The position numbers and the translations under genes are program-made. From contig WGMN01000016.1 in assembly GCA_016125035.1 (NCBI GenBank), positions 1,554-65,553 on the forward strand: a stretch of 64,000 bases of DNA, given 5' to 3'. Below are positions 7,571 to 63,613 of this stretch, piece after piece. Under the pieces are notes generated by a model. That model was not told the origin of the DNA. It did no database searches and saw nothing but the letters and a program-made list of their open reading frames with translations. The stretch comes from Pseudomonadota bacterium. Lineage in GTDB: Bacteria > Pseudomonadota > Alphaproteobacteria > UBA2136 > UBA6156. The first letter of the stretch is position 1; each line of letters begins with the position of its first letter.

Positions 7571-9748
7571 CTAAACCTTCACAGGCTTCCCGGCCGAGAT
7601 ACTCTCCTCCGCCCACAACACCACACGAGAAGAGTCGCACAGCTCACCAACCCCCGGTATCCCCTGGCTACCTTGCTCCGCGTTCCCCGTTCCTCCCAGG
7701 GCGCAACCTTGCAACCACGCCGCAATGGCGGGCGCATGGCCTTTTTCCTGCCCGCCGAACATGCCTTTTTTGTAAAGGGTGCTCTTGCGGCCACCTTCGC
7801 TCCACACCGTGCTCATGTAGTTGTCCATCACGCCTGTGGCGCCGCCGCCGAACACTTCCACCCGCTCCTTGGCAAAACCGCTGTCCCCCTCGCTGGAATA
7901 AAACACCGTGCCCACGCTGCCGTCGGCAAAACGCAACGTCACCACATAGTCGTCCTGCCCTGCCCCTTGCACCGCATTTACACTCTCCAACCTGGTCCCT
8001 CGCCCCTCGCCCCCAGCCCCTATCAACCACATGCACACATCGGTAAAGTGGCACACCTCGCCCAGCAAACGGCCGCCGCCCTCATTGCTGTGCTGCCAGC
8101 CGCCATCATCCAGCCGCCCGGCATTCACCCGCACCAACACCTGCTTGGGCCCGCTCACCTTGGCCAGCCTGGCCTTTAACGGCAGCAGGGCTGGCGAGAA
8201 CCGCCGGTTAAACCCCACCATCAGCACGCGGCCGCTCTTTTCCGCCGCACTTTGCACCGCATCAATGTCCTTCAAGCTCAGCGCCAGCGGCTTTTCCACC
8301 CACACGTTCTTGTCGGCCTTCAATGCCGCCAACACCTGCGCCGCGTGGGCGTTATGGCGGGTCATCACCATCACACCATGGGTGTTGTCGTCGCTCAGCA
8401 CCTTCTGCATGTCGCTGGCCGCCCACGCCGCGCCGTATTTCTCCGCCACATGGCCGGCGGTCAAACCGCCCTTGCTCACCACGCCGCGCAACACCCAGCC
8501 GCTAATCCCCTGCATCGCGGGCAACACCACACTCCGCGCAAACCCGCCAACCCCCACCATGCTCACGCCCACGCGGCCCCGCATCTTCACCGGCTTGGCC
8601 TGGCTACCTGGTTCCTGGTTCCTGGTTCCCTCTTCCTTATAACCCAGCACCACGCCCAAACACGGCTTTCCGGCGGCGATCAGCTCATAGCCCTTCAAAG
8701 CCTGGTCCAGGCCAAACTCATGCGTGGTCAGCAGGCCAACCTTCAGCTTGCCCACGGCCATCAGCCGCACCACTTCGCCCAGGTTTTCGCGTTCGGTCCA
8801 CGGCACAAACCCCACCGGATAAGCCTCGCCGCGCGCCTCAAACGCCGGGTCGTAACGCCCCGGGCCGTAGCTGCGGCTCACGCGCACGGTCAGCTCTTTT
8901 TTCATGTAACTGGCGTAGGGGAAGCGCGTGCCCACCTTGCCCACCAAGATCACCTTGGCCCTGTCGCGCGCCCACTCGGCGGCCTGCTCGATCGGGCCGT
9001 CGCTGTCGGTGGCGGCACAGATCAATATCGCGTCAAAGCCGCGCCCGTCTGTAAAGGTGCGCCAACCTTCCTCCAGGGCCTTGGGCGATGTCGCCCACGC
9101 CGCTCCGCCCTGCTTGGCCAGCATGCAACGCTCGGTGTTGGGGTCCACCCCGGCCACGCGCGCCCCTGCCGCCGCTGCTAATTGGGCCACCAACTGGCCC
9201 ACCAATCCCAAACCCACCACCAGCACGCGGTCGCCCAGCTGCACACCGGCGTTGCGCACACCATGCAGGGCAATGGCGCCCAGGGTGGCGTAGCAACCTT
9301 CGGCAAAGGGCACCGCATCGGGCAACTTCACCACCAGGTTCTTCGGCACGGCGTTAAATTCCGCATGATTGGCCAACCCTGCCCCGGCCACCGCCACGCG
9401 GTCACCCACCGCAAATTCGCTGGCCAGATCATTGCCCACCTTCACCACCACGCCTGCGGCCGAGTACCCCAGCGGCATCGGCTCTTCTAACCGGCTGAAC
9501 ACGCTTTTTAACGTATCCGCCACCCCGTCCCTGCGCATCTTGGCCACCACCTTGCGCACCAAATCCGGCCGCTCCTTGGCCTTGCCCGCCAAACTCTTGC
9601 CGGCAAAATCCATCATCATCCGCTCGGTACCGGCGCTAATCAAACTGGCCCGCGTCGCCACCAAAACCTCACCCCGCCCGCAGCCCGGCGCGGGCACGTC
9701 GCGCAGCTCCACCTTCCCGCTCTTCAAATTCTGCACCACTTGCCGCAT
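7571..9748 (-). CDS. bi-domain oxidoreductase (zinc-type alcohol dehydrogenase/MDR domain fused to a Gfo/Idh/MocA domain)
   Basis: N-terminal MDR fold (GVDPN Rossmann region). C-terminal GFO_IDH_MocA (VGVGGFARSVVLPA...). Start placed at MRQVVQNLKSGKVEL. The ORF extends to 9811. Confidence 0.85.
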   Translation of the reverse strand: MRQVVQNLKSGKVELRDVPAPGCGRGEVLVATRASLISAGTERMMMDFAGKSLAGKAKERPDLVRKVVAKMRRDGVADTLKSVFSRLEEPMPLGYSAAGVVVKVGNDLASEFAVGDRVAVAGAGLANHAEFNAVPKNLVVKLPDAVPFAEGCYATLGAIALHGVRNAGVQLGDRVLVVGLGLVGQLVAQLAAAAGARVAGVDPNTERCMLAKQGGAAWATSPKALEEGWRTFTDGRGFDAILICAATDSDGPIEQAAEWARDRAKVILVGKVGTRFPYASYMKKELTVRVSRSYGPGRYDPAFEARGEAYPVGFVPWTERENLGEVVRLMAVGKLKVGLLTTHEFGLDQALKGYELIAAGKPCLGVVLGYKEEGTRNQEPGSQAKPVKMRGRVGVSMVGVGGFARSVVLPAMQGISGWVLRGVVSKGGLTAGHVAEKYGAAWAASDMQKVLSDDNTHGVMVMTRHNAHAAQVLAALKADKNVWVEKPLALSLKDIDAVQSAAEKSGRVLMVGFNRRFSPALLPLKARLAKVSGPKQVLVRVNAGRLDDGGWQHSNEGGGRLLGEVCHFTDVCMWLIGAGGEGRGTRLESVNAVQGAGQDDYVVTLRFADGSVGTVFYSSEGDSGFAKERVEVFGGGATGVMDNYMSTVWSEGGRKSTLYKKGMFGGQEKGHAPAIAAWLQGCALGGTGNAEQGSQGIPGVGELCDSSRVVLWAEESISAGKPVKV
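8607..8630. repeat. heptamer tandem repeat CCTGGTT x3 (coding sense GGAACCA), in frame in the oxidoreductase interdomain linker
   Basis: cctggttcctggttcctggttccc encodes EEGTRNQEPGS between the two domains. Confidence 0.9.
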
Positions 9749-9829
9749 GTTCGCGTTCTTTCTATTTTCAATAACCCGCGCACCATACAGCAAAGCCCCC
9801 GGCGGCAGCAACCGCCGGGGGCTTACTCG

Positions 9830-10111
9830 TCAATTTGTTGGCGTTTGGGCAGTTTCTTCCTGCGCCAGCAGCCAGCGCCCGGCCATCTCGTCCACCGCCA
9901 ACATTGCAAGGTTGACGAGGGGAGAACCCGGGGCGGGGTCTCGCCTTATCGCGGTTCCCATGCCAATCTGCACGCAATAGCGTAAAGGTGCGGTGGGATG
10001 CCGTTTGTGATACGCCAAGGTGTGGCGGGTAATTTCTTCGATCATTTCCTCGAGCTGCCTATCCGCGTCCGCTACCGGCGCGGTTGAAACCTGAGTGCGT
10101 TGCTGTAACAC
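9830..10111 (-). CDS. hypothetical protein
   Basis: GTG at 10111 lies 6 nt after an AAGGAG Shine-Dalgarno, giving 93 aa. No family recognised. The ORF track extends to 10171. Confidence 0.4.
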   Translation of the reverse strand: MLQQRTQVSTAPVADADRQLEEMIEEITRHTLAYHKRHPTAPLRYCVQIGMGTAIRRDPAPGSPLVNLAMLAVDEMAGRWLLAQEETAQTPTN

Positions 10112-10174: not shown

Positions 10175-10873
10175 CTAAGTTGCCCGCTTCCGCGCCCGCT
10201 TGCGCAAATCATTCGGGCTCAACGCCCAAGGCCGCAGCAAAACGGTCTGGCTTGGCATAATCCACAAATCACGGCGGGTGTTGGCGGTCACACCGCACCT
10301 GTCCAGGCGCAGATGAGACATGCTCTCGCTGTCGGTCAATTTAATGGTGGAAGGCGTCACCCGGTGGATCAACGTGAAGTGGTTGAAGGCCTTCTGAATT
10401 CCTAAAATAGCCACCTGCCCGCCTTCATTCACCTCTTCGCGCAGTTTCTTGATGTAAGTATCCACGCGCCACGCTGGCCCATTGGCCGGTTTCCTGAATT
10501 CCTTGTGGCGCACTTCCAGCCGCAACTTGGCGGGCACGGCGCGGTTGGCCAGGGCAATCAGGTCCAGCAGCTCATGGTAAGTCAGGCCATCAAACACTGC
10601 CAGCGGCGCGGCTTTGGCCATGCGCTTGAACAACCGTGCCGCGCGCTCATGGGTAAAATCATCCCCCCACAGCAGCCGGTAGGCATTGATCACCGCATAT
10701 ATCCCGCAAAGCCCGTCCAACTCACCCTGCGTAAAAGGCTCAATCCCCGGCGCCACCCAGGCCGCGGCCTTACCCTTCTTGCCCCGCCCCAGCTTGCTTC
10801 CCCGCAACCCCGCGACCCCGCGACCCCGCGACCCCTTTTCCCCCTTGTAAGGTATTGCCTTTAGTTTCACCAT
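10175..10873 (-). CDS. hypothetical protein, possibly a papain-like Cys/His peptidase fold
   Basis: Start at MVKLKAIPYKG, 1 nt after the upstream stop. GELDGLCGIYAVINAY (candidate nucleophile Cys) and AFNHFTLIH (candidate His). The family call is weak. Confidence 0.45.
   Translation of the reverse strand: MVKLKAIPYKGEKGSRGRGVAGLRGSKLGRGKKGKAAAWVAPGIEPFTQGELDGLCGIYAVINAYRLLWGDDFTHERAARLFKRMAKAAPLAVFDGLTYHELLDLIALANRAVPAKLRLEVRHKEFRKPANGPAWRVDTYIKKLREEVNEGGQVAILGIQKAFNHFTLIHRVTPSTIKLTDSESMSHLRLDRCGVTANTRRDLWIMPSQTVLLRPWALSPNDLRKRARKRAT
10800..10835. repeat. octamer tandem repeat CCCCGCGA x4.5 (coding sense TCGCGGGG), in frame
   Basis: ccccgcaaccccgcgaccccgcgaccccgcgacccc encodes KGSRGRGVAGLRGSK near the N-terminus of the 10175..10873 protein. 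Confidence 0.9.
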
Positions 10874-10874
10874 T

Positions 10875-12143
10875 TCACGCCTGAACCTCTTGTGAAACAG
10901 TGGAACTAACATCCCCGCGCCTGCGGAAAACCCCACAGCTGTCCACCACCGCCTTGCCCGCAAGCGCCCCCTCCGGCAGCTCCTTAAACACCTTGTGCCC
11001 GGTCAGCGCCACCACCACATCAGCTTCCTTAATCGCTTTATCAAGCTTGGTTAAAGGTTTGTCCCAGCTCTCAATATGCGGCTCAACGATCATCAGCTCC
11101 AAGCCCTCATCACCGGCCAATTCTTCCACCACCGCAATGCTCGGAGACTCCCGCAAATAATCGACATCAGGCTTATAAGCCAACCCCAAACACGCCACCT
11201 TCACCCGAGACCCTGAGACCCTGAGACCCTGAGACCCTCTTACCCGTTTCACGCTTTCACGCACCTTCCCCGCCACAAACGCCGGTTTGCTGTCATTCAC
11301 CTCGCGCGCAGCCTTCATAAAAGGCGTCACCTTCGGCGCGGCGTGGATGATAAACCACGGGTCCACCGCAATGCAGTGCCCGCCCACCCCCGGCCCGGGG
11401 TTGAAGATGTTCACCCGCGGGTGGCGGTTGGCCAGCGCAATCACGTCCCAGGCATCCATGCCCAGCTGGTCGCACACCAGGCTCAGCTCGTTGGCAAAGG
11501 CGATCTGCGCGTCGCGGCTGGCATTTTCCACCAGCTTCACCAGCTCGGCCACACGGGCCTGGGTGGGTATCACCGCGCCTTTGCAGAAGGTCTTGTAAAG
11601 CTCCACCCCACGGGCGGTGGCGGCCTCGGTCAGCCCCCCCACCAGGCGGTCGTTGTGCACCATCTCGTGCAGCGTGTTGCCGGGTATCGCCCGCTCGGGG
11701 CAGAAAACATACGCCACCATGCCCACCAAGTCCGGGCGCAGCTTCTCAATAACATCCCGCACATTGGCCTCTGTGGCCCCCACCGGGCTGGTGCTTTCCA
11801 TGATCACCAACTCGCCGCCCTTCAGCACCGGGGCAATGGCTTTGGCCCCCGCTTCCACAAAGCTCATGTCGGCCTTGTGGGTGGTGTGGTCAACGGGCGT
11901 GGGCAGGCTCAAAATAAAGGCCTCGGCGGCCTCGGGCTTAGCCACCGCGCGCAAACGCCCGCTCTTGTGGGCTTCGGCCACAATTTCCGGCACACCGGGC
12001 TCGGCAAAGTGGCATTTTCCGGCGTTTACGGCGTCCACCGCCTTGGGGTTGATATCCACCCCCACCACCTCATGCCCGGCACGCGCCAACACGGCCGCCA
12101 TCGGCAGCCCCATATAACCCAGCCCGATCACGGAAATCCGCAT
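10875..12143 (-). CDS. nucleotide-sugar dehydrogenase (UDP-N-acetyl-D-mannosamine dehydrogenase WecC/Cap5O-like)
   Basis: Start at MRISVIGLGYMGLPMA with a GGAGGAGG Shine-Dalgarno. Contains CPERAIPG and GPGVGGHCIAVDPWF motifs. The ORF extends to 12521, but the upstream part is not protein-like. Confidence 0.85.
   Translation of the reverse strand: MRISVIGLGYMGLPMAAVLARAGHEVVGVDINPKAVDAVNAGKCHFAEPGVPEIVAEAHKSGRLRAVAKPEAAEAFILSLPTPVDHTTHKADMSFVEAGAKAIAPVLKGGELVIMESTSPVGATEANVRDVIEKLRPDLVGMVAYVFCPERAIPGNTLHEMVHNDRLVGGLTEAATARGVELYKTFCKGAVIPTQARVAELVKLVENASRDAQIAFANELSLVCDQLGMDAWDVIALANRHPRVNIFNPGPGVGGHCIAVDPWFIIHAAPKVTPFMKAAREVNDSKPAFVAGKVRESVKRVRGSQGLRVSGSRVKVACLGLAYKPDVDYLRESPSIAVVEELAGDEGLELMIVEPHIESWDKPLTKLDKAIKEADVVVALTGHKVFKELPEGALAGKAVVDSCGVFRRRGDVSSTVSQEVQA
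11204..11238. repeat. octamer tandem repeat CCTGAGAC x4 (coding sense GTCTCAGG), in frame
   Basis: cccgagaccctgagaccctgagaccctgagaccct encodes VRGSQGLRVSGSRV just before the C-terminal-domain strand KVACLGLAYK. Confidence 0.9.
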
Positions 12144-14778: not shown

Positions 14779-16722
14779 CTACTCCCAACATAACTCATCC
14801 ACCCGCTGCCACACCCGCCCGCACGCCACTCCGTGCACCTGCCACCGGCCACCCACCTTCACCGCCCAGGCAAACCTCCTGCCCTTCAACTCCTCCGGCA
14901 AACGCTCCTGCCAGTCACCCCCCTTCTCGGCCCCCTCCCCCACCACGCGCCACCCTGTCCCCCGCAACAAAAACCGCGCATTTCCGGCATTTTGCGCCCA
15001 TACCACACGGTAGAAGTCTCCCCCCTTCCCTGGCCCCTGTTCCCTCTCCACCCCCACCTTCCCCCCATCCAGCAAAGCCATCTCCACTTCCGGCTGCATC
15101 CGCCCCGCGCCCCACGCCAGCGCCGCCGTGGCCGCCACTCCCACGCCCACCAGCGCCCACCTGCGCAGCAACACCGCCGCCAACACCCCCAAGCTCAACA
15201 CCAGCACCACCGGCCACCAGCGTGCGTCCACCGCAAAACCGCCCTGCCACCCGGCCAGCAGCAGCGCCCAGGCGTTCACCAGCCCCACCACCTGGCCCAT
15301 GGCCCACAGCGCCGGGCCCTGCCAGCCCAGTGGCCACAACGCCAGGGCAGCCATGCCTATATAGGTGGCCAGCGCGGTCAACGGCACCGCGGGCAGGTTG
15401 GCCAGCACCCCCACCGCGCTCAACTGGCCAAAGGTCACCAGCACCAGCGGCGCGGTGGCCGCCCCGGCCACCACACTGCTTAGCAGCAGCCCGCGCAACC
15501 AGCCCCAAAAGCCCTCGGGCCTGCTCTCGGTTATCCCCCAGCCGATCAACGCCAGCACCGCCACCACACTCAGCTGAAAGCCCGCACTGGTCACCAGCGC
15601 CGGGCTGGCCAGCACAATCACCATCACCGCCAACCCCCAGGCGCGCAATCCATGCCGTATGCGGCCGCCAATTGCCGCCAGCAGCAGCAATCCCAGCATC
15701 AAAAAGGCGCGCACAACGCCCACCGTCGCACCGCTCAGCAGCGTATAGCCGCCGGCGGCAAGCAATCCCGCCAAGGCCGCCCAGGCCTTGATGTTCCACC
15801 GCAGCGCCGCCCCCGGCACCCAGGCCAACAGCAATCTTATCAACAGGTAAACCCCACCCCCCACCACACTCAGGTGCATGCCGCTAATCGCCAGCAAGTG
15901 GCTCAACCCCGCCGCCCGGTAAGCAGTTGTAATTTCATCAGGAATTGCCCGTTTATCGCCCACCAGCAACGCCGCCGGCACCCCCTGCCCGTAGCCCTCC
16001 GCCCCCGCCGCCACCTTGGCCCTAACCCCTTCAACCCACAGCCAAAATTGCCCCACCCCCTGGGTTTTCTCCAGCCCCGGCGGCGGGGCGGTCTTCTCCA
16101 CCTTGCCCCGCGCGTAGCCGTAAACCACTTTGTTATTCAGGTACTTCCACAACCTGTAATCGCGCATCCCCGGCGCCCGCGGCCCTTCCGGCCGCATCAG
16201 CAACACTGGCGCCGCCACCGCCTCCCCCACCTCTAAGTCCTTCACCTGGCTGGAATAAACCCCGATCCGCGCCTCGCCGATCCCCCCACTCCCCGGCAGC
16301 TGATAAAACCGCACCGGCGCCAAAACCAGCATACTCCGCAAGGGGTTATCTGCTTTCTGTTGCACCTCCACCACGTTTCCCGCCACCCAGTGGGCCTTCC
16401 AGCTGGCGGCCTCCCAGCTAAAGGTGGTTTGTGCCCGCTCCACCTGCATTCCGGCCAGTGCAAAGGCCAGCCCAAAAGCCACCACAAAACCACCAAAAAT
16501 GCGCAACCAAGCAGCAACCAGCAGCCCTACCCCCACCCCTATGATGCCAAATTGCCACAAAACCTCATTTGGCCAGCTGAAATAGAGTATACTTCCCGCC
16601 GCGCAACCCAAGGCCACGGCCAAAATCCGCCGGTCCCGCCACAGCGCTTGATAAAGCAGGTCCAAGTGGTTAGGTTGCACGCCTTGAAGATAACAGGACC
16701 CAACGCCTAATGTCAGCCACAA
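14779..16722 (-). CDS. comEC: ComEC/Rec2 family competence membrane protein (no C-terminal metallo-beta-lactamase domain)
   Basis: Polytopic membrane protein with the LLAISGMHLSVVGG motif. The annotated start overlaps the divergent gltX start, so the true start is probably internal (for example GTG at 16680). Confidence 0.8.
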   Translation of the reverse strand: MWLTLGVGSCYLQGVQPNHLDLLYQALWRDRRILAVALGCAAGSILYFSWPNEVLWQFGIIGVGVGLLVAAWLRIFGGFVVAFGLAFALAGMQVERAQTTFSWEAASWKAHWVAGNVVEVQQKADNPLRSMLVLAPVRFYQLPGSGGIGEARIGVYSSQVKDLEVGEAVAAPVLLMRPEGPRAPGMRDYRLWKYLNNKVVYGYARGKVEKTAPPPGLEKTQGVGQFWLWVEGVRAKVAAGAEGYGQGVPAALLVGDKRAIPDEITTAYRAAGLSHLLAISGMHLSVVGGGVYLLIRLLLAWVPGAALRWNIKAWAALAGLLAAGGYTLLSGATVGVVRAFLMLGLLLLAAIGGRIRHGLRAWGLAVMVIVLASPALVTSAGFQLSVVAVLALIGWGITESRPEGFWGWLRGLLLSSVVAGAATAPLVLVTFGQLSAVGVLANLPAVPLTALATYIGMAALALWPLGWQGPALWAMGQVVGLVNAWALLLAGWQGGFAVDARWWPVVLVLSLGVLAAVLLRRWALVGVGVAATAALAWGAGRMQPEVEMALLDGGKVGVEREQGPGKGGDFYRVVWAQNAGNARFLLRGTGWRVVGEGAEKGGDWQERLPEELKGRRFAWAVKVGGRWQVHGVACGRVWQRVDELCWE

Positions 16723-22016: not shown

Positions 22017-25000
22017 TTAGCGCACTCCCACCCCACTCAGCCCGCGCAAATTTGCCAGCATGCTGGCACTTACCCCCAACGTGCCGGGCAGCTTCACCAC
22101 CGCCTCGCCCTGGCCGCTTGCCACAATCAACTTCACCCGCGTGGCACCTTTACCCGCGCCGTCCAACAACCCCTTCACCTGGCCCATCACTTTCGGGTCG
22201 GCCACGGTAATCACCAGTTCGCGGCGCTCGCCCAGCACCTCTTCCAGCAACCGCGCGCCGTCGGCACTTATGCGCAAGCGCTCGCCGTCCTGGCTCACCT
22301 TCACCGTCACCACCAGCGGCTGCCCGCCCTCCAGCAAGCGCTGGCAGGCGGCGTATGTCTCGGGGAAGAACGCCACCTCCCCCTGCCCGGTGGCATCGCT
22401 CATGGTCACAATGCCCATGCGGTTGCCGGTCTTGGTCTTCACTTCCCTTATGCCGTGCACAATCCCCGCCACGCGGCAACTGCCGCCGCCGCCCGCGGCA
22501 AAATCGGCAATGTCGTGCCAGCCCTTCAGGCTCGCCAGCCGCGCTAGTTCGTCGGCAAAGGCACTCATCGGGTGCGCGCTTAAATAAAAGCCCACCGCCT
22601 CTGCCTCGTGCTGCAAACGGGTCAGATAATTCCACGCCTCTCCCGCCACACACGCCGCCTGATAAGGCGCCGCATCCACACTCACATCCCCGCCGCCGAA
22701 CAAACTCCCCTGCCCGCTTTCCCGCGCCTCGGCACTGTCTCCACCATAAGCCAGCAACGTGTCCATGTTCGCCCACAACCAGTCCCGCCGAGGCTCCAAA
22801 CTGTCAAACACACCACCCTTAATAAGCACTTCCAATTGCCGCCTGTTCAAGGCGCTGGGCGCCACCCGCGCCATCACCTCCCACACACTCTTAAACGGCC
22901 CGTTCTTTCTCCGCTCCTCCACCAACACCCGCATCGCCTCCTCTCCGGCCCCCTTCAAAGCCGCCAAAGCATGCCGCACAGCCTCTCCCCCCTGCGACCC
23001 CGCGACCCCGCTACCCCGCAACCTTTCCACCGCAAACATCACCTCACTCGCATTCACATCCGGCGGAAGCAGCGCAATGCCCATCTTCCCCAGTTCCACC
23101 TTGTAGCGCAGCAGCTTGTCGTGGTTGCCGCGGTCATAGGTCATGGTGGCGGCCATAAACTCATGCGGGTAGTGCGCCTTTAAATAGGCTGTCTGATAAC
23201 TGATCAGCGCATAGGCCATGCTGTGCGCCTTGTTAAAACCATACCCCGCAAAGGTCTCCATCAACCCGAAGATGCGCGTGGAGGTCTCCTCATCCACACC
23301 ATGGTGCTCCTTGGCACCTGCCACAAACTTGGCCTTCTCCTTGGCCATTTCTTCGGGCAGCTTTTTCCCCATCGCGCGGCGCAGCATGTCGGCACCACCC
23401 AGGGTGTAACCACCCATCACGCGCGCCATCTGCATCACCTGCTCCTGATAAACTGCGATGCCAAAGGTCACCTTCAAGGTCTCCTCCAGCAGCGGGTGGG
23501 GGTACTGCGCCTCCTCCTGCCCCAACCGCACACGCAGGTACTGCGGGATAAGGTCCATCGGTCCCGGCCGGTAAAGGGCAATCAGCGCGCTCAACGCTTC
23601 CATATCGTCGGCGCGCATCTTCTTGGTCAGCTCGGTCATGCCCGCGCCTTCAATCTGGAAAACCCCGGTGGTCGCGCCTTCCTTCAGCATCTCAAAGGTG
23701 GCTTTGTCCTTCAAATCGACGTGCATGATGTCAAACCCGGGCTGCTTGGTCTCCCTCACCATCACCTCCGCGGCGCGGATAACACTCAGCGTCTTCAACC
23801 CCAAAAAGTCGAATTTCACCAGCCCCGCATACTCCACGTCTTTCATGGAAAACTGCGTCACCGGCATGTGGCTCCGCGGGTCCACAAACAACCCGCACAC
23901 TTCGGCAATCGGCCGGTCGGTAATAATCACTCCCGCCGCGTGCGTGCTGGCATGGCGGTAGCACCCTTCCAGTTGCAAGGCGGTGTCTACCAGGCGCTTC
24001 ACATCTTCTTCGTTGTCGTAGCGCTCGCGCAGACGCTCGTCGTTTTCAAACACTTCGGCAATCGGCGGCGGGTTGGCGCCGTCGGGTATCAGCGCCGCCA
24101 CCTGCCCCACAAAACCGTAGGGCAAACCCAGCACACGCCCCACATCGCGCAAACACGCCCGCGCTTTTAATGTCCCAAAGGTTATAATGTGCGCCACCCG
24201 GTCATGGCCGAACCGCTCACGCGTATAGGCGATCACCTCATCCCGCCTGTCTTGGCAAAAGTCCACGTCAAAGTCGGGCAGGCTCACCCGCTCCGGGTTC
24301 AAGAAGCGCTCAAAATAAAGCTCCCAGCGCAACGGGTCCAGGTCGGTGATCTCCAAACTCCACGCCACCAAACTTCCCGCCCCACTTCCGCGCCCCGGCC
24401 CCACCGGTATGCCATTACGCTTCGCCCAGCGGATAAAGTCCGAGGTGATAAGGAAATACCCCGGGAAGCCCATCTTGATAATCACATCCAGCTCATAAGC
24501 CAGCTGCTTCTCATAATTCTCCTTCGCCGCCGCCTTGGCTTCCTCGCCATCACACCGTGGATAAACATATTCCTCCAACCGCCGCACCAACCCCGCCTGC
24601 GCCTCGCGGCGGATAACCTCTTCCACCGGCGTATCACCGTCAAACTCCCACTTGGGCATAAACATCTGCTTCACCTTCACCTCGGGGATGAGGTAGGCGC
24701 AGCGCAACGCAACCTGCACGGTGTTGGCGCAGGCTTCGGGCAGGTCGGCAAAGGCCGCCAGCATGTCCTTCTCGCTGCGCAGACAATGGTTCGCGCTAAA
24801 CCTCCTGCGCGCCGGATCATCCATGGTGGTGCTGTCTCCAATGCCCACCAGCACTTCAAAGGCTTCGCGGTCGGCGGGCTTTAAAAAGCGCACGTCATTG
24901 GTGGCCACCAGCGGCAATTTTTTCTCCGCCGCAAAGGCGCGCAGCACACGCTCCATCTCTCTTTCGCGCAGGGCCATCTCGGCAAAGCCGTCTTCTTCCT

Positions 25001-25647: not shown

Positions 25648-26007
25648 CCGTCAGGTCCAGATGCATCAGAACGAGGGATAGCATCGTTTCAAAGGATGGG
25701 CGGCTGCGCCACACAGGGCAAAGAGCCCTCGGTACAAAAGCCCATTGATATTCTTGCGGTATGGCCCGCCTTCTCCTGAGCGTGCTGCGCACACGTTCTA
25801 TCGAGGGAGGCCTTTCTCACCGCAGGAAAGAACACACCGCCCGCCACAGCAATGTGGTCGCGGCCCTAAAAAGGGCGGGACGGCACTTGTGTTCTACGCG
25901 TCGGGCAGTCCCCGTCGTGATAACCGCTCAAACAGTGCCAGCCGGCATCGAAGGGGTATTTCCGGGTCGCTCCCGGGGACGTCATCGATGCCGGCCCCTC
26001 ATTTTTT
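25648..26007 (+). ncRNA. candidate stand-alone structured RNA of about 360 nt (identity unknown)
   Basis: Promoter-like TTTACC-16-TTAAAT at 25615-25642. Ends in a long branched hairpin (25941-25995) plus TTTTTT (26002-26007) on the plus strand. There is no credible ORF, and the T-run overlaps the lolD stop. Confidence 0.35.
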
Positions 26008-26713
26008 AAACCAGCCGCCCTTCTTCCATCCGCAAAATCACATCGCAGCGCTCCGCCAACGCCACATTGTGCGTCACAATCAGCGCACTCAGCCCTTCAT
26101 TGCGCACCAGACCAAACAGCAAATCCACCACACTTTCTGCGGTGTGCGGGTCCAAATTCCCCGTCGGCTCATCCGCCAGCAACAACTTCGGCCAGTTCAT
26201 CAACGCGCGCGCCAACGCCACCCGCTGCTGCTCGCCACCGCTCATCTGATGGGGGTAATGCTCCACCCGCTTGCCCAGCCCCACCGCCTTCAAAAGCTCC
26301 TCCGCGCGCAGCTTCAACGCCCTGCGCTCTCCCTTGCCGCCGATCAACGCCGGCATCATCACATTCTCTCGCGCATCAAACTCGCGCAGCAGGTGATGGT
26401 ATTGATAAACAAACCCGAAGTGCGCATTGCGTATGGCTGAAATTTCCGCATCACTGCGCCCGGCCGCCGCCACGCCCATCACCTTCACCTGGCCTTTGTC
26501 CGGGGCGTCCAGCAACCCCGCCACATGCAGCAGGGTGCTCTTGCCAGAACCACTTGGCCCCACAATCGCCACGGTCTGCCCCGCACGCACACTCAAATCC
26601 ACCCCATGCAAAACATCCACCTTGGCCGCCCCATCACCATACCAGAGCTGCACCCCCTCCAACTCCAACACGGCTTGGCCTGAACCCGTCCCCATTCCTT
26701 TTCTCTTACCCAC
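26006..26713 (-). CDS. lolD: lipoprotein-releasing ABC transporter ATP-binding protein
   Basis: Walker [10 protein letters not shown], signature [15 protein letters not shown] and Walker [13 protein letters not shown]. Lies adjacent to the LolC/E permease. Confidence 0.9.
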
Positions 26714-27077: not shown

Positions 27078-27100
27078 GGCACCACCCGGGGGTTAACCCA

Positions 27101-33800: not shown

Positions 33801-33914
33801 CCCCGCCCCCCTGGCCCGCAAGGCCGGGGGGGCGCGGTTTTCCAGGGCACACTTTCAGCCCTCCCCCCTCCACCCCCGCTTGACGCCCTGCGCCCCAACC
33901 GCCATCCTTCCCCC

Positions 33915-54208: not shown

Positions 54209-55255
54209 CTACAGCCCCCGCGCCTTCATCACTTTTGTGTAAAACTCCAGTATCTTATCGCGTGCCTTGTCCAGCGTGAAGGCGCTCATGTCATACTCCA
54301 CCCTGTGTCGCCCCTTGGCAAATTCGTCACGCAAAGCGCTGGTCATTCCGGCCAGTTTGCCCTTCTCCACCCAGCGCACCGGGTGCCCCTGCAAATACTC
54401 GCTGGGCCCCTCGCTGCGGCTGCAGATCAGCGGCAAACCGGCATCCATCGCCTCCAAAATACTCAACCCGAAGGGCTCATACCGCGCAGCACTCACATAC
54501 ACATCAAACCCGGCGTAATAAGGCCCAATTTCCGCCACATTCCCCGCCAGCACAATCCGCCGGTCACCCTCACACAGTGCCTCCAAATCCTTGCGCTGGT
54601 CTCCTTCTCCGGCAATCACCAGCCGCACATCCTCGCCCTTGTTAAAAGCCTGGCGGAACGCCCGCACCAACACATCCATACCCTTGTTGGAATGCAACCG
54701 CCCCACACTGCCAAACACCACGGTTTCCTTGCCGCAATCCAGCTTCTTGCGTAGCGCCTTGCCATCTGCCTTGGTGCCAATTTCCGGCAGCCAGTTCCAC
54801 ACCACCCGCATCATGCCGCGGTAGGCGTGCGGCACTTCCTTCCTCTGCCACCCGGCAATGCAGATCAACCCATCGCTCCCCATCATCTCCTTGTCTTTCC
54901 AGCGCAAATGCAGCGTCACCACCCATGGCAGCTTCAGCTTTTTGGCCACCCGGCCGACGCGCACATTGGCCCGCCCCAAATGGGTGTGAACCATCTGCGG
55001 CACAAACCCGCGCATAAACTTCTCGATAACCCACTGTTCCATAAAGCCCGGAACCCACCACGGCACACACAAAACCTCCGCCGGCGCCGCCTCTGCCCGC
55101 CACCTGGCCACCCTCGTTCCTCGTTCCTGGTTCCTCGTTCCTTTTATTACCACCCGCACATCCATCCCCGCCCGCGCCTGCGCCCGCGCCAAACTGGCGC
55201 AATAGCGCTCACTGCCAAAAAAAGCCTTACTCAGGTGGGCGTGGAGAACTTTCAT
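54209..55255 (-). CDS. glycosyltransferase, GT4 (GT-B fold) family
   Basis: Start at MKVLHAHLSK. C-terminal EPFGLSILEAMDAGLPLI motif. The ORF extends to 55345. Confidence 0.8.
   Translation of the reverse strand: MKVLHAHLSKAFFGSERYCASLARAQARAGMDVRVVIKGTRNQERGTRVARWRAEAAPAEVLCVPWWVPGFMEQWVIEKFMRGFVPQMVHTHLGRANVRVGRVAKKLKLPWVVTLHLRWKDKEMMGSDGLICIAGWQRKEVPHAYRGMMRVVWNWLPEIGTKADGKALRKKLDCGKETVVFGSVGRLHSNKGMDVLVRAFRQAFNKGEDVRLVIAGEGDQRKDLEALCEGDRRIVLAGNVAEIGPYYAGFDVYVSAARYEPFGLSILEAMDAGLPLICSRSEGPSEYLQGHPVRWVEKGKLAGMTSALRDEFAKGRHRVEYDMSAFTLDKARDKILEFYTKVMKARGL
55112..55142. repeat. heptamer tandem repeat CCTCGTT/CCTGGTT x4, in frame in the glycosyltransferase
   Basis: cctcgttcctcgttcctggttcctcgttcct encodes KGTRNQERGTRV. 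Confidence 0.9.
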
Positions 55256-56393: not shown

Positions 56394-56759
56394 TTAGCCC
56401 CGCCTTTTTTCAAGCAACCCAAAGATCATCTGGCAAACCCTGGAATATTCCTCACGTAATTCCACCACTGTCTCTTTTTCAAGATATTCCAGTTTTTCCA
56501 TAAATGACAGCCAAACCCTGGTCTCTTCCGCGCTTCCCAACGCTATCGAGAGGAATTTACGCTCATCCGCCAGGCTCATATGCTTGCTTAAACCTTCGGC
56601 CAGATTTGCGCATATCCCCTTGCTGCTGCGACGTATCTGGTCGGCCAAGCCACCATACTGCTCAACCTTTGGAAGTGGTTCGGCAAGCTTATGCACACGT
56701 AAGGCCAGACTAAAAGCCAACTTATAAACATCCAGGTCTTCATAGCTTTTAATTGTCAT
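56394..56759 (-). CDS. four-helix-bundle protein (23S rRNA intervening-sequence protein / Avd-like family), second copy
   Basis: 121 aa. YEDLDVYKLAFSLALRVHKLAEPLP...EQYGGLADQIRRSSKGICANLAEGLSK. About 45% identical to the 26706..27077 product by eye. Inserted between lpdA and lipA. Confidence 0.8.
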   Translation of the reverse strand: MTIKSYEDLDVYKLAFSLALRVHKLAEPLPKVEQYGGLADQIRRSSKGICANLAEGLSKHMSLADERKFLSIALGSAEETRVWLSFMEKLEYLEKETVVELREEYSRVCQMIFGLLEKRRG

Positions 56760-56769
56760 CCCGCCCCCC

Positions 56770-56804
56770 CGAACACCGATAACCGATTACCGAACACCGC
56801 TTAC
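56770..56804. repeat. degenerate heptamer tandem repeat CGAACAC/CGATAAC/CGATTAC x5, intergenic
   Basis: cgaacaccgataaccgattaccgaacaccgcttac overlaps the lpdA stop and ends 10 nt upstream of the four-helix-bundle start. Confidence 0.8.
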
Positions 56805-58192
56805 CCATTCAACGCCTTCCCATCCGCAGCCAAAGCTGCCTCGCCCATCATCTCACTCAGCGTCGGGTGCGGCAAACAAACCGTTTGCAAGTCCTGCTCC
56901 ACCGCCTCCATATGCCGTCCCAGAACGAACGTGCTGATCATCTCAGTCGCCTCCGCCCCAATCATATGCGCCCCCAGCAATTCACCGGTCCTGGCATCAA
57001 ACACCACCTTCACCATCCCGTTCGGCTCACCCAGTGCAATCGCCTTGCCGTTGGCCTGGTAGCTGTATCTTCCCACCTTCACCTCATGGCCTTTGGCCTT
57101 CGCGGCAGCCTCGGTCAACCCGGTGCTGGCCACCTGCGGCGTGCAGTAGGTGCAGCCGGGGATGTTATCATAACGCATGGCATGTGGCTCATGGTTGCCC
57201 TTGCCCGCCGCAAACGCCATGTGCTCGGCGGCGATCACCCCCTCGTGGCTGGCCACGTGCGCCAGCCACGGCGCGCCGATCACATCGCCAATGGCATAAA
57301 CATTCGGGCAGGCCGTGCGGTACATCTTGTCCACCTTCACCATGCCTTTTTCCGGGAACACCTTCAGCCCCTCCAGCCCCAAACCCTCAACATTCCCACT
57401 CACCCCAATGGCCAAAATCGCCCGGGAAAAAGAACGCTTCTTCCCATCAATAACCACCGTCACCTGAGACCCTGAGACCCTGAGATCCTGACATCCTTTC
57501 CCCACCACAATCTCAATCCCAAACCCCTCCAGCTCCTTCTTGAGCAGCTTGGAAATCTCCTCATCCTCCGCCGGAACAATCCGCTCCTGCGCCTCCACCA
57601 GCGTCACCTTGCAGCCCAGCGCGTTATAAAAGCTCGCAAACTCCACCCCAATGGCACCGCCGCCAATCACCAGCAAATCCTTCGGTAAAGCCTTCGGCAC
57701 CATCGCCTCCCTGGCGGTCCAGATGTACTCCCCATCCGCCTCCAGCACACCCTTGATCTGCTTGGCACGCGCCCCCGTGGCCACCACCGCATACTTAAAC
57801 GCCACGCGCTTGCCACCCACCTCCAATTCCGTATCGCTCACAAACTTGGCGGTGCCTCGCACCACTTCCACCTTATTCTTCTTCATCAAAAATTCCACGC
57901 CTTTGCTCAGCTTGCCCGCCACCTCACGGCTGCGCTCGATCACCCGCGCAAAATCGATCTTGGTGATCTTCGCCTCAAAGCCAAAATCCGCCGCATGCTC
58001 AATGGTGCGCTTCACCTCACCCGCCTTCAGCAGCGCCTTGGTGGGGATGCACCCCCAGTTCAAGCAAACGCCCCCCAGCGCATCCTTCTCCACCACCGCC
58101 ACCTTAAACCCCAGCTGCGCCGCGCGGATGGCACAAACATACCCCCCCGGGCCGGCACCCACCACCACCACATCAAACGTCATATCAGCCAT
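56801..58192 (-). CDS. lpdA: dihydrolipoyl dehydrogenase (E3)
   Basis: Start at MADMTFDVVVVGAGPGGY with a GGAGAA Shine-Dalgarno. Redox-active CLNWGCIPTK and C-terminal HPTLSE. Confidence 0.92.
   Translation of the reverse strand: MADMTFDVVVVGAGPGGYVCAIRAAQLGFKVAVVEKDALGGVCLNWGCIPTKALLKAGEVKRTIEHAADFGFEAKITKIDFARVIERSREVAGKLSKGVEFLMKKNKVEVVRGTAKFVSDTELEVGGKRVAFKYAVVATGARAKQIKGVLEADGEYIWTAREAMVPKALPKDLLVIGGGAIGVEFASFYNALGCKVTLVEAQERIVPAEDEEISKLLKKELEGFGIEIVVGKGCQDLRVSGSQVTVVIDGKKRSFSRAILAIGVSGNVEGLGLEGLKVFPEKGMVKVDKMYRTACPNVYAIGDVIGAPWLAHVASHEGVIAAEHMAFAAGKGNHEPHAMRYDNIPGCTYCTPQVASTGLTEAAAKAKGHEVKVGRYSYQANGKAIALGEPNGMVKVVFDARTGELLGAHMIGAEATEMISTFVLGRHMEAVEQDLQTVCLPHPTLSEMMGEAALAADGKALNG
57463..57496. 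repeat. octamer tandem repeat CCTGAGAC-type x4, in frame in lpdA
   Basis: cctgagaccctgagaccctgagatcctgacatcc encodes CQDLRVSGSQVT. Confidence 0.9.
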
Positions 58193-58687: not shown

Positions 58688-59935
58688 TTACCCCACCATG
58701 CTTTTCGGTTGTTCCAAATACCCCACAATCGCGCCCAAAAGTTCCGCCCCCAGTGCCCCATCAATCACCCGATGGTCCACACTCAACGTCAACTTCATCA
58801 TGCCATCCCGCCCCGTCGCGCCCACCGCCAGAATCGCCGCCTGCGGAGGATTGATAATCGCAGAAAATTCCTCAATCCCATACATCCCCAAATTGGAAAT
58901 GCTAAAGCTCCCGCCCTCATACTGCGCAGGCTTCAGCTTGCCCGCGCGCGCATCCGCCGCCAGCTGCTTCACCTCGCCACTGATCTCCCCCAACCCCTTG
59001 GCATCGGCGTTGAACACGATCGGCGTCACCAACCCGCCCTCAATTGCCACCGCCACGCTAATGTCCACGTTACCGTAAGTGGTCACCTCGCCACCCTCTC
59101 CCCAACTGGCGTTGGCCATGGGGAAGTCCCGCAGCGCCAACCCGCACGCCTTCACAATAAAATCATTCACCGTCAGCTTCTGCCCACTCGCCGCCAGCAT
59201 CTCGTTCAGCTCAGCCCGCGCATCCATCAAACGCCGCATATCGGCACTGCGCGTCAAATAGAAATGCGGCACCGTCTGCTTGCTCTGCAACAACCGCGCG
59301 GCGATCGCCCTGCGCATCGGCGCCACCTTCTCCACCCGGTCACTCCCCCGCACCGCGCCAGAACCCGCCAGCAACGCCATCAGCGGATGCCCCCCACCCC
59401 CGCCACTGCGCTTCACATCCGCCGCCACCACGCGCCCCTGCGGCCCGCTGCCGCGCACCAGCGCCAAATTCACCCCACTGTCCGCCGCCAAACGCTTCGC
59501 CAAGGGGGAAGCCTTCACCCGCCCACTCCCCACCACCGGTCTGATTTCTGATTTCTGATTTCTGATTTCTTTTTTCACCGGCACCACCACAGGCGCAACC
59601 GTCACCACCGGCGCCGCCTTCGGCTCCTCTTTCTTCACCTCAACCTTCTTCTCCGCCACCTTGCCCTTGGGCTTGTAATCCGCAGCCACCTTCTCATCCT
59701 TGCCGCGCAACACCGCAATAGGCGCACCCACCGGCAAGTCCGCCCCCGGCTGGCCGATGATCATATGCAAAATCCCATCATCAGAAGCCTCAACTTCCAT
59801 CGTCGCCTTATCCGTCTCCACCTCCGCGATCACATCGCCAGCACTAATCTTATCGCCCTCTTTCCTGGTCCACTTGGCCAAACGCCCCTCGGTCATGGTG
59901 GGGCTAAGCTGCGGCATCAACACATCAATCGGCAT
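58688..59935 (-). CDS. pdhC: pyruvate dehydrogenase complex dihydrolipoyllysine-residue acetyltransferase (E2)
   Basis: Lipoyl domain (VETDKATMEVE), E3-binding domain (SPLAKRLA) and catalytic domain (SVDHRVIDGA). Confidence 0.9.
   Translation of the reverse strand: MPIDVLMPQLSPTMTEGRLAKWTRKEGDKISAGDVIAEVETDKATMEVEASDDGILHMIIGQPGADLPVGAPIAVLRGKDEKVAADYKPKGKVAEKKVEVKKEEPKAAPVVTVAPVVVPVKKEIRNQKSEIRPVVGSGRVKASPLAKRLAADSGVNLALVRGSGPQGRVVAADVKRSGGGGGHPLMALLAGSGAVRGSDRVEKVAPMRRAIAARLLQSKQTVPHFYLTRSADMRRLMDARAELNEMLAASGQKLTVNDFIVKACGLALRDFPMANASWGEGGEVTTYGNVDISVAVAIEGGLVTPIVFNADAKGLGEISGEVKQLAADARAGKLKPAQYEGGSFSISNLGMYGIEEFSAIINPPQAAILAVGATGRDGMMKLTLSVDHRVIDGALGAELLGAIVGYLEQPKSMVG
59541..59570. repeat. 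heptamer tandem repeat CTGATTT x4 (coding sense AAATCAG), in frame in the pdhC interdomain linker
   Basis: ctgatttctgatttctgatttctgatttct encodes KKEIRNQKSEIRP between the lipoyl and E3-binding domains. Confidence 0.9.
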
Positions 59936-62452: not shown

Positions 62453-62464
62453 CGTTAAATCTCC

Positions 62465-63613
62465 TTATTCCGGCACCACATCGGTAAACAATTCGCCCAC
62501 ATCCGTGCGCGGCGCAGTGGTCGCAATCTCCGCCACCTTGTTCACCTCCGCCTTCACTTCGTCGTCGAACTTCTCAAACTCCGCCTCCTTCATCCCCAGC
62601 GCATCCATCATGTATTTCTGCATCCGCGCGATAGGGTCACGCGCCTCGCGCACACAGTCCACATCCTCACGCGTGCGGTACTTCGCCGGGTCGCTCATGC
62701 TGTGCCCACGGTAGCGGTAGGTGTCCATCTCCAGCAGATAAGGCCCCTTCCCCGCACGGCAGTGCTCGGCGGCCCTGCGGCAAGCCTCCACAGAGGCAAA
62801 AAAGTCCATCCCATCCACCTTCTCACCGGGTATGCCGAACGGCTCGCCACGCCGCCACAACTCCCCCGCCGCCGCACGCGGCACGCTGGTGCCCATGCCC
62901 CACTGGTTGTTCTCGATCACAAACACCACCGGCAGCTTCCACAGCGCCGCCATGTTAAAGCTCTCAAACACCTGCCCGGCATTCACCGCACCGTCTCCCA
63001 TAAAGGTGAAGCACACCCGCATTTCCTCCCCACGCGGCGAAGCCGCGCCCGAATCCCGAATCCCGAATCCCGAATCCCGTGCCTGGTACTTCCGCGCAAA
63101 AGCAATCCCCGCGCCCAGCGGCACCTGCGCCGCCACAATCCCATGCCCGCCCCAAAAGCCTTTGCTGGGCTCAAACATGTGCATGGAGCCGCCCTTACCT
63201 TTGCTGATCCCCAACTGCCGCCCGGTCAGCTCGCCCATCACCTGCTCGCCACTCAACCCGCACACCAAACCCAACGCGTGGCAACGGTAGCTGGTAATGT
63301 AATCATCGCCTTCTTTCCCCCCCGCCTTGGCACCCGCCGCCACCGCTTCCTGGCCAATATAAAGGTGGCAGAACCCCGCAATCTCCCCCTGCTGATAAAG
63401 GCTCGCCGCCTTCTCTTCAAAACGCCGCATGTAAAGCATCTGGCGATACCACCCCAGCAAGGCTTTTTTATCCAGGCCCAACACCTCATGGGGCATGTTT
63501 TTGCCTTTCACTACTTTCAAGCCATCGGCGGGGGCTTTCCCCGCACCTGCATCCTGTTCACGCGCGCGCATGGTCTGTCTTATCCTTATTAAGATGCGCG
63601 CATCCTGCCCCAA
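62465..63613 (-). CDS. pdhA: pyruvate dehydrogenase E1 component alpha subunit
   Basis: ThDP motif GDGAVNAGQVFES...NN, and YRYRGHSMSDP. The start is uncertain (an alternative is M15 at 63571). Carries an in-frame repeat insertion. Confidence 0.9.
   Translation of the reverse strand: MGQDARILIRIRQTMRAREQDAGAGKAPADGLKVVKGKNMPHEVLGLDKKALLGWYRQMLYMRRFEEKAASLYQQGEIAGFCHLYIGQEAVAAGAKAGGKEGDDYITSYRCHALGLVCGLSGEQVMGELTGRQLGISKGKGGSMHMFEPSKGFWGGHGIVAAQVPLGAGIAFARKYQARDSGFGIRDSGAASPRGEEMRVCFTFMGDGAVNAGQVFESFNMAALWKLPVVFVIENNQWGMGTSVPRAAAGELWRRGEPFGIPGEKVDGMDFFASVEACRRAAEHCRAGKGPYLLEMDTYRYRGHSMSDPAKYRTREDVDCVREARDPIARMQKYMMDALGMKEAEFEKFDDEVKAEVNKVAEIATTAPRTDVGELFTDVVPE
63048..63079. repeat. heptamer tandem repeat CCCGAAT x4.5 (coding sense ATTCGGG), in frame in pdhA
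   Basis: cccgaatcccgaatcccgaatcccgaatcccg encodes ARDSGFGIRDSG, immediately before the ThDP-binding GDG motif region. Confidence 0.9.

Follow-up and report, generated by a model that had tools for sequence, protein, structure and literature searches.

In a 64-kb window of DNA from a Pseudomonadota bacterium (contig WGMN01000016.1; the window is the whole stretch analyzed here), 16 short tandem tracts of 7- or 8-nt units were distinguished, most of them within conserved housekeeping genes and two of them directly upstream of genes encoding four-helix-bundle proteins of the PF05635 family. The reading that we favour, with about as much doubt as confidence, is that these dispersed heptamer/octamer blocks are copied into new sites ready-made, and that the solitary (solo) tracts are orphan arms of a family of PF05635 cassettes. 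Dispersed heptamer repeats have been known since 1990 and are among the commonest long simple repeats of bacteria; their origin and patchy occurrence are not understood. Those of cyanobacteria, the STRR heptamers, were reportedly described by Mazel in 1990. The present case is new in that essential genes carry the repeats in their coding sequence, in its density, in having 7- and 8-nt families side by side, and in the strand lock and the link to PF05635 genes.

The window was screened with Tandem Repeats Finder (TRF) and with our own scan (at least three copies, at most one mismatch), for which 100 dinucleotide-preserving shuffles of the window served as the null. All 14 tracts listed in an earlier reading of the letters alone (the sequence-only reading) were recovered by TRF at the coordinates given there. 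They have a period of 7 or 8, 3.3–5.1 copies and a length of 23–37 nt, and match levels across tracts are 73–100%. Two further degenerate tracts (7537–7566 and 7997–8021) found by TRF bring the total in the window to 16. Our own scan detected eight period-7 loci, against a shuffle mean of 0.04 (maximum 1), and five period-8 loci, against a mean of 0.00, while periods 4, 5, 6 and 9–12 showed no enrichment over shuffles in the window. Comparison with shuffled sequence had been named in the sequence-only reading as a possible refutation, and its outcome within the window favours the claim. There are thus 13 strict tracts per 64 kb, or one block of ~30 nt per 4–5 kb, and the block length is ~30 nt for 7-nt and 8-nt units alike.

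Read on the gene (minus) strand, the units represent at least six families, five of which occupy two or three loci each inside 64 kb. These are GAGGAAC/CAGGAAC (tracts 8607, 40736 and 55112), AAATCAG (27989 and 59540), GGGATTC (25308 and 63048, with the variant GTGATTC at 36465) and the octamers GGGTCTCA (11203, 27100 and 57463) and GGGGTCGC (10800 and 22990); a degenerate CGGTGTT-like unit is found at 56769. Tracts of the same family are nearly identical in content and length, those at 27989 and 59540 being identical 31-mers, and a degenerate 5′ unit is common to several of them. Like dispersed simple sequence repeats (SSRs) of the STRR or LSSR5-11 type, the tracts are short head-to-tail arrays without spacers, and one unit recurs at many unlinked loci beyond chance. 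They depart from this type in not being predominantly intergenic, as 10 of the 14 lie in Pfam-supported coding sequences and one more in the tail of a gene on the opposite strand.

Host genes were identified by a Pfam search of the window open reading frames (ORFs), which agreed with the identities proposed in the sequence-only reading. Ten tracts, all given here on the minus strand, are in frame in Pfam-supported minus-strand genes, and all ten leave long reading frames open. The gene dnaE contains two of them: (GGGATTC)x3.7 at 25308–25333, in a variable loop of the PHP domain, and GGGGTCGC x4.2 at 22990–23023, which occupies an HhH-domain loop as a clean insertion of 36 nt (RLRGSGVAGSQG). 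The E1alpha gene carries (GGGATTC)x4.6 at 63048–63079, in a loop shortly before the region of the GDG thiamine-diphosphate motif; the E2 gene carries (AAATCAG)x4.4 at 59540–59570, in the linker from the lipoyl to the E3-binding domain; and in lpd GGGTCTCA x3.6 (57463–57491) encodes a beta-hairpin loop of the NAD domain of dihydrolipoyl dehydrogenase. The remaining hosts encode a LolC-like permease ((AAATCAG)x4.4 at 27989–28019, periplasmic domain), FtsH ((GAGGAAC)x4.3–5.1 at 40736–40772, C-terminal tail past the M41 domain), a GT4 glycosyltransferase (GAGGAAC x4.4 with one CAGGAAC unit at 55112–55142, loop of the N-terminal domain), a UDP-glucose/GDP-mannose dehydrogenase family protein (GGGTCTCA x4.6 at 11203–11238, between the central and UDP-binding domains) and an ADH_zinc_N + GFO_IDH_MocA fusion, hereafter ADH/GFO ((CAGGAAC)x3.3 at 8607–8629, interdomain linker, peptide GTRNQEPG). 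Both degenerate tracts are associated with the last of these genes: the GGGGCGA-like one (7997–8021, minus strand) lies within it and encodes IGAGGEGRG, and the AGGTTGT-like one (7537–7566, minus strand; TRF period 7, 4.3 copies, 78% matches) is situated 5–34 nt past its stop codon.

In the sequence-only reading, 12 tracts had been placed inside ORFs with the frame kept. This stands for the ten described above. The tract at 36465–36490 (GTGATTC-like on the minus strand) belongs to the C-terminal tail of a plus-strand gene of the cytidine/deoxycytidylate-deaminase family (36008–36502; PF00383), within whose final 12 codons it lies. The minus-strand tract GGGGTCGC x4.5 at 10800–10835 is read in frame within the N-terminal portion of a 262-aa hypothetical ORF (10175–10963) that has no Pfam or NCBIfam match and whose coding status is putative. 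This ORF contains a GELDGLCGIYAVINAY segment, and its syntenic position in the related locus L002 is taken by an unrelated 115-aa gene on the opposite strand. The two remaining tracts are found at or after stop codons, each before a PF05635 gene: GGGTCTCA x3.8 at 27100–27129 (minus strand) begins right behind the lolC stop codon and ends 22 nt before the ATG of the gene that we call IVP-1, and the degenerate heptamer tract CGGTGTT/CGGTAAT/CGGTTAT at 56769–56805 (minus strand) runs across the lpd stop codon to 9 nt before the ATG of IVP-2. Other elements of the earlier description were borne out. The in-gene tracts are translated in frame and read in three phases, the listed peptides (GTRNEER, EIRNQKS, DSGFGIR, GLRVSGSQ and RGVAGS) are correct by translation, and the tracts are sited at linkers, loops and tails.

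The window DnaE is closest to proteins of uncultured Alphaproteobacteria, with a best match of 78% identity (L001) and the clade at 60–71%; its own sequence cluster has a single member, on one contig, and no near-identical strain is present in the collections. The relatives’ loci (L001–L003, L044–L049 and L184–L187) are contigs of such bacteria that share synteny and a strong GC skew with the window. No 7/8-mer tracts were found in the closest loci available (L001, L002 and L003; 37.5 kb), and L002, being syntenic with the window, provides empty orthologous sites. Alignment with orthologues showed that the tracts are lineage-specific, as claimed earlier: sister lineages have no tract, or another repeat family, at the same loops. 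The further claim that the tracts are inserted holds for part of them. The HhH-loop tract of dnaE adds 12 aa net relative to relatives, as does the E1alpha tract relative to the clade (18 aa relative to human PDHA1), and smaller gains were found for the UDP-sugar dehydrogenase (8 aa at the tract and a separate 4 aa just upstream, versus L002), the LolC-like permease (tract 27989; net 6 aa), and the dnaE PHP-domain and GT4 tracts (net 3 aa each). In ADH/GFO the linker sequence is replaced with a gain of 1 aa versus L002, and in lpd there is no change at all: the protein has 463 aa, as in relatives with 86% identity, and the native hairpin is overwritten. Several tracts thus replace a loop, and judged from these alignments some events look like patch replacement rather than insertion.

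Other members of the clade carry tracts of their own. The DnaE HhH loop holds a different family in each of four lineages (GGGGTCGC in the window, a GGAACCGA-type octamer in L044, GGGTCACA in L045 and AAGAAAC in L046), and the lpd loop does so in three (GGGTCTCA in the window, AGGAACC in L048 and GGGTCAAA in L049). In E2 the tracts are AAATCAG in linker 1 (window), GGAATTC/GGGATTC in linker 2 (L047) and AGGAACC in a loop of the catalytic domain (L048). The same families reappear at other sites in other lineages, namely CAGGAAC-type units in E2 and lpd of L048, GGGATTC-type units in E2 of L047 and GGGTC-type units in L045 and L049. Unit families are therefore retained across lineages, and their positions change. 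The window lineage looks like a burst, with zero or one solo tract in each of L184, L185 and L186 (20 kb each) and none in L002. As a separate observation, one lpd homologue (P0123) has a 5-residue tandem duplication, KVEGLKVEGLK (15 nt), at the loop matching window tract 57463, so that this loop tolerates ordinary in-frame duplications as well.

The origin of the blocks was examined from two sides. Within the window the units are rare outside their tracts: no further gene-strand copy of GGGTCTCA exists in any rotation, and AAATCAG occurs in four copies, against ~27 naively expected. The similarity of the relatives’ orthologous empty sites to the respective unit was then compared with that of random windows of the same gene. 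Empty sites proved no more unit-like than the gene background (1 of 19 comparisons below p=0.05), with weak seed similarity at two sites, ADH/GFO (p=0.03) and GT4 (p=0.09), and apart from these two sites local seeds were rejected as the origin. The rarity of the units, the lack of seeds at empty sites and the recurrence of families at two or three unlinked loci argue that the blocks were imported and not locally grown. The sequence-only reading had taken the recurrence of one unit at unlinked loci to point beyond local slippage, to a spreading or templated mechanism; rare units, seedless sites and the identical 31-mers support this, and it is the better supported of the two views. Two other candidates were discarded. 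A match of the lpd tract to M. tuberculosis Lpd (‘GSQVTV’) vanished when close relatives were aligned. The 5′ flank GGARAGGATGWCAGG, shared by tracts 27100 and 57463, is suggestive only as part of a mobile unit and was rejected as such, since in lolC this stretch encodes the protein's native C-terminus (RRG-stop), which L044 shares.

An unlikely alternative to import is independent slippage at each site, with a favoured 7–8 nt period and favoured units, and nothing moving between loci. According to Mrazek 2007, as cited in PMC4679880, heptamers are the most frequent class of long SSRs in many bacteria, for which slippage dependent on the polymerase has been put forward; the copy number of a heptamer array also varies between Coxiella strains (PMC4990558), and the weak seed similarity at ADH/GFO and GT4 counts in favour of slippage. 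Tracts of the GGGATTC, GGGTCTCA and GGGGTCGC families contain four or more G-runs, and in Xanthomonas a preference for four units has been tied to G-quadruplexes (PMC4692102). In the window this concerns tracts 63048, 25308, 11203, 10800 and 22990, in which four or more runs of at least three G with short loops were seen as a sequence pattern. The pattern is absent from the AAATCAG and GAGGAAC families and from tract 57463, and because these two main families cannot form a three-tetrad G-quadruplex, such structures were rejected as a general explanation. Slippage also leaves unexplained why rare 7/8-mers that are absent or scarce as single copies recur at two or three unlinked loci in 64 kb, why two 31-nt tracts are identical, why most empty sites are seedless, and why periods 4–6 and 9–12 show no excess. 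Moreover, the lpd tract overwrites native sequence at unchanged length, which is unlike slippage.

The blocks are also locked to one strand, a feature absent from the sequence-only reading. The window has a G+C content of ~61% and an unusually strong plus-strand GC skew of −0.17 to −0.35; the skew of the oriented relatives is +0.18 to +0.30, and it is clade-wide, being present also in tract-free lineages. Most genes are co-oriented. In all 16 window tracts, including the one in a plus-strand gene, G exceeds C on the minus strand, and in all tracts of the clade loci the G-rich strand is the strand of positive GC skew. Units with a stop codon in the sense strand are found only outside co-oriented reading frames or at their very ends, as expected from selective filtering. 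The reverse complements of GAGGAAC, GGGATTC and GGGGTCGC are also stop-free, yet these units occur in one orientation only, and avoidance of stop codons alone is therefore inadequate as a reason for the bias. In the deaminase gene of the plus strand, the tract, which is the sole case that separates the chromosome strand from the transcription strand, keeps the chromosome-strand orientation, and this single case suggests that the lock is to the replication strand.

PF05635 comprises the 23S rRNA intervening sequence protein (S23p), and TIGR02436 the four helix bundle protein. We know of no function for the PF05635 proteins of 23S rRNA intervening sequences (IVS). Two genes of this kind, whose association with the tracts had likewise escaped the sequence-only reading, were identified in the window, both in minus-strand orientation: IVP-1 (26706–27077; 123 aa; PF05635 96 bits, TIGR02436 94 bits), between lolC and lolD, and IVP-2 (56394–56759; 121 aa; PF05635 102 bits, TIGR02436 98 bits), between lpd and lipA; the Pfam cut-off for PF05635 is 33.8 bits. 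In L002 lolC and lolD overlap and no cassette is present, and the lpd–lipA spacer of L047 is merely 23 nt long. Tracts 27100 and 56769 are the 5′ arms of these PF05635 cassettes. Both copies thus have the ~120-aa ORF of an IVS-type cassette and an array directly upstream of it. A complementary downstream arm is missing, the next gene starting at or overlapping the cassette stop codon. The cassettes lie between protein genes and not in a 23S rRNA gene, and an Rfam scan of the window detected no rRNA, one tRNA-Met being the single RNA family. Different intergenic positions are occupied in different lineages. A lolC–lolD cassette is also present in L184 (8697–11079, corresponding to 26006–28392 of the window), a lineage at 67% DnaE identity. 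Its units are CGGGTRT, as opposed to GGGTCTCA in the window, and lolC and lolD overlap in the closer L002 and L003; this pattern reflects either recurrent insertion at one site or an ancient insertion followed by loss.

Tandem arrays of 7–9-mers are a regular feature of PF05635 genes, being found just upstream of 26 of the 27 examined (~24 of 25 independent ones). The 27 comprise 11 genes from clade loci, four from array-selected loci of other phyla and 12 from plasmids, collected by protein similarity. All 11 clade genes (two in the window, two in L185 and others in L044, L047, L048, L184, L186 and L187) have a tandem 7/8-mer array, in some cases degenerate, within a few tens of nucleotides upstream. 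As L187 duplicates the L047 lineage, ~9 of them are independent; the estimated chance of a tract in a given 60-nt upstream window is ~2% (~26 tracts in ~109 kb). The four genes of other phyla were found with a small profile built from the clade proteins, in loci selected because they contain arrays: L028 (Bacteroidales), L041 (Ignavibacteriaceae), L060 and L108. An array lies 13–60 nt upstream of each gene, and L041 has an inverted array downstream as well. The repeat-unbiased set was obtained by tblastn in plasmids of Nostocales, Pseudanabaena, Oscillatoria, Picosynechococcus, Leptolyngbya, Azospirillum and Riemerella, and contains 12 distinct genes in 14 loci (L176 and L181 encode one protein; L173 and L175 were each matched by both queries). 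Eleven of the 12 have a tandem 7–9-mer array directly upstream, and most also have a complementary array downstream. The lone exception, the L176/L181 protein, is adjoined on its upstream side by an insertion sequence (IS) element and has a heptamer array downstream.

Several observations accompany this survey. PF05635 genes with repeat arms are located inside CRISPR-Cas operons in L173 (Pseudanabaena pPg_01), L182 (Anabaena sp. 90 pANA02) and L175 (a plasmid of Picosynechococcus PCC 7003), where in two of the operons the insertion separates cas6 from cas4, and in the third cas10 from cmr3. Plasmid AZO_p2 of Azospirillum lipoferum 4B (L170, 14389–14745) contains an unannotated PF05635 ORF with inverted GACGGAT/GACAGAG heptamers on either side, which closely resemble the GACAGAT unit of the Coxiella 23S IVS; the sequence beyond them may be rRNA-like. 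Most close homologues (P0241–P0360) were found on very short contigs of 0.5–2 kb, which suggests that metagenome assemblies are interrupted at cassettes or repeat arms, and that how often these occur, and in what context, is probably under-sampled. An exact 20-mer of GGGTCTCA (2.5 copies) had no match in IMG/VR contigs, searched as a sign of phage or virus carriage. It occurs in 40 stretches of GTDB species representatives from many phyla, often as longer arrays mixed with GGGTCGCA-type variants, and in inverted pairs in Vicinamibacteria; in metagenomes, GGAACSA arrays were present, among the matches listed, in contigs of 35–74% G+C. The close inverted pairs of GGGTCTCA/GGGTCGCA in metagenome-assembled genomes of Vicinamibacteria (L004 2230–2399, L018 1594–1753, L019 4427–4494 and L042 6117–6180) have no ORF between them and would form long hairpins, resembling ORF-less cassettes and the inverted pairs of Xanthomonas.

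To our knowledge, solo arms within coding sequences have not been described for IVS elements. The IVS of 23S rRNA (Leptospira, Coxiella, Brucella, Xanthomonas) share with the window cassettes the PF05635 family and the tandem heptamers before the ATG. That of Coxiella burnetii has three tandem GACAGAT units and one degenerate copy directly before the S23p ATG, with two or three copies depending on the strain; the S23p family forms a homopentameric toroid, and the element is considered to be selfish (Warrier et al. 2016, PMC4990558). The stem-forming complementary ends of the IVS are matched in the plasmid, Ignavibacteria and Azospirillum examples, whereas the window cassettes stand between protein genes and have the upstream arm only. 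PF05635 has also been described as Avd-like (PMC10053308), and Avd, the accessory protein of diversity-generating retroelements, belongs to a homologous four-helix-bundle fold family. IVP-1 has a weak match to NF033474 (the Avd protein of these retroelements) and one homologue a weak match to PF22296, but the scores are far below the Avd cut-offs, and no reverse transcriptase, template repeat or variable repeat was seen near the window genes.

Rickettsia palindromic elements (RPEs), to which the tracts had been likened in the sequence-only reading, are palindromic, hairpin-forming elements of 100–150 bp that constitute a few long families. The likeness extends to the outcome, that is, non-coding repeat DNA of an alphaproteobacterium translated in frame at permissive surface sites of conserved housekeeping proteins. 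It fails on every structural feature: the window tracts are direct tandem repeats of 23–37 nt with a 7/8-nt period, whose units are not self-complementary. Contingency loci of Haemophilus and Neisseria reside in surface or restriction-modification genes, where switching is tolerated, and usually consist of many copies of 1–5-nt units. As there, the unit length in the window is not a multiple of three and a change by one unit shifts the frame. The window tracts, however, are not in dispensable genes; their hosts (dnaE, ftsH, the pyruvate dehydrogenase complex, lolC) are essential, and a frameshift would be lethal.

The likeness to cyanobacterial STRR heptamers, also drawn earlier, was apt. The phenomenon, treated in the sequence-only reading as unfamiliar in this form, is known in kind: repeats of this kind have been described (PMC4692102, PMC4679880), although there they are mostly intergenic. 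The GGGAATC/GGGGAYT (GGGNATC) repeats of Xanthomonas and Nostoc occupy ~185 loci with a mode of four units, are 89–93% intergenic, and show frequent inverted pairs, with neither strand bias nor association with mobile elements (Rehm et al. 2015, PMC4692102). Common to these, the STRR and the window are dispersed head-to-tail heptamers built on one unit, array lengths that peak near four units, G-rich families capable of forming G-quadruplexes, and loci that are not conserved between related species; the means of spread is not established for any of them. The window differs in that ~70% of its tracts are translated inside housekeeping genes, in its strict strand lock, in the coexistence of several 7- and 8-nt families, and in a roughly six-fold higher density (one per 4–5 kb versus ~1 per 27 kb). 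The TAACTGA repeats of marine Beggiatoaceae, Cyanobacteria and Bacteroidetes occur as sets of 2–6 copies at ~170 loci; horizontal spread was suspected, with the remark that ‘no mechanism is evident’, and the author speculated about a mobile repeat-binding protein (MacGregor 2015, PMC4679880). They resemble the window tracts in often lying right before start codons or over the upstream stop codon, with a few in ORF tails, and in their patchy distribution over phyla. They differ in the unit, which in forward orientation has stop codons in all frames and hence is never gene-internal. A link to PF05635 is not mentioned in that paper, and we found no publication that links this gene family to dispersed heptamer repeat families.

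Under the reading that we favour, blocks of ~30 nt with 3–5 units would be copied to new sites as ready-made wholes whose G-rich strand always falls on one and the same strand of the chromosome; some copies would add length, others would overwrite an equal stretch. The copying may proceed by templated patching, either at the replication fork or in the course of break repair, and the solo tracts would derive from the cassettes or depend on them. In a gene-dense genome, selection would then keep stop-free, frame-keeping copies in linkers, loops and tails and behind stop codons, the encoded 7-/8-residue periodic peptides being by-products. More speculatively, a pentameric protein might recognize about one unit per subunit, binding 4–5 units in all, and might have a part in regulation or spread.

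Several points weigh against this reading. Two of the 16 window tracts adjoin a PF05635 gene, and GGGTCTCA alone serves there both as a cassette arm and as a solo tract. The window cassettes do not have the inverted downstream arm found elsewhere. The cassette-bearing loci L184 and L186 are almost devoid of solo tracts, which indicates that a cassette alone is insufficient for spread, and cassettes could insert into pre-existing arrays rather than give rise to them. A Pfam scan of ~55 window ORFs revealed no transposase, reverse transcriptase, recombinase or mismatch-repair gene, and no polymerase, transposase, reverse transcriptase or recombinase was found in the window as copying machinery. 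The distinction between replication strand and direction of transcription rests on one informative tract. Finally, the recurrence of GGGTCTCA and GGAACSA across phyla, compared without control units, may reflect the small sequence space of 7/8-mers, and was for this reason not used as evidence of horizontal transfer.

Besides slippage, it is conceivable, though we regard it as improbable, that the tracts are selected cis-elements, i.e. operators of a pentameric protein or G-quadruplexes kept for the control of translation, mRNA processing or replication. Arrays 9–60 nt before the ATG of nearly all PF05635 genes examined occupy the position of a translational operator, tracts have 3–5 units and the protein family is reported to be homopentameric (Lin 2006, as cited in PMC4990558), and the inverted arms seen in other taxa would pair into a stem of the RNase III type, like that of 23S intervening sequences (PMC4990558). 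Such a role would account for the persistence of blocks, but not for the arrival of identical ones at new sites. It also fits poorly with the in-gene tracts, which are not conserved between sister lineages: the same loop has different families or none, the closest relatives function without tracts, and no theme unites the hosts, which are unrelated housekeeping genes.

It is very unlikely that the tracts are transposition footprints, left by an element with a 7–8 bp target duplication that revisited sites and deposited stacked duplications on excision. Typical target duplications do include lengths of 7–8 bp, tracts are located exactly at cassette boundaries, and the native lpd–lipA spacer of L047 begins with CGGTTTG, close to the window unit CGGTGTT. 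A 0.4-kb insertion in dnaE, lpd or ftsH would, however, kill the cell, and the units are common to several loci rather than taken from the local target sequence. Nor do the tracts have the marks of miniature inverted-repeat transposable elements or IS elements, as solo tracts have no inverted partner and no transposase was found among the window ORFs scanned. An assembly or sequencing artefact is hardly credible: the source is a metagenome-assembled contig and many PF05635 homologues are on very short contigs, but all ten in-gene tracts keep long frames open and equivalent tracts occur in independent ENA, Logan, NCBI and JGI assemblies and in finished plasmids. None of the rivals covers family sharing, seedlessness and cassette linkage jointly.

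A broader proposal, to be taken as tentative and more probably wrong than right, is that heptamer/octamer arrays and pentameric PF05635 proteins together form one widespread selfish system, with units specific to each paralogue and arrays as copying arms. If true, it would account for the 4–5 units of 7–9 nt (one per subunit), and it would explain the patchy distribution of STRR, GGGAATC and TAACTGA repeats across phyla, the origin of the 23S IVS and the in-frame burst in the window genome. Independently of this proposal, the repeats densely colonize the coding sequences of genes for core replication, division and central metabolism and so provide a natural map of insertion-tolerant sites, and they are a source of lineage-specific periodic peptides. 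Their ready-made, strand-locked arrival constrains the mechanism, and the physical tie to a widespread gene family in several phyla makes an old descriptive puzzle testable.

Some other features of the window were recorded. The plus-strand ORF 33880–36018 encodes a fusion of an HTH_3/HTH_31 DNA-binding domain with the catalytic domain of the RuBisCO large chain. The fusion is also present in L002 and L184, where it is followed by a RuBisCO_small gene; in the window this place is taken by the deaminase-family gene 36008–36502 (plus strand). A tRNA-Met (CAT) gene (32369–32445, minus strand) stands where the minus-strand block meets the plus-strand block of the HTH-RuBisCO-like and deaminase genes. 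TRF also detected imperfect repeats of about two copies with periods of 27–28 nt at 6037–6095, in an asparagine synthase gene, and at 14856–14923, in a ComEC-like gene.

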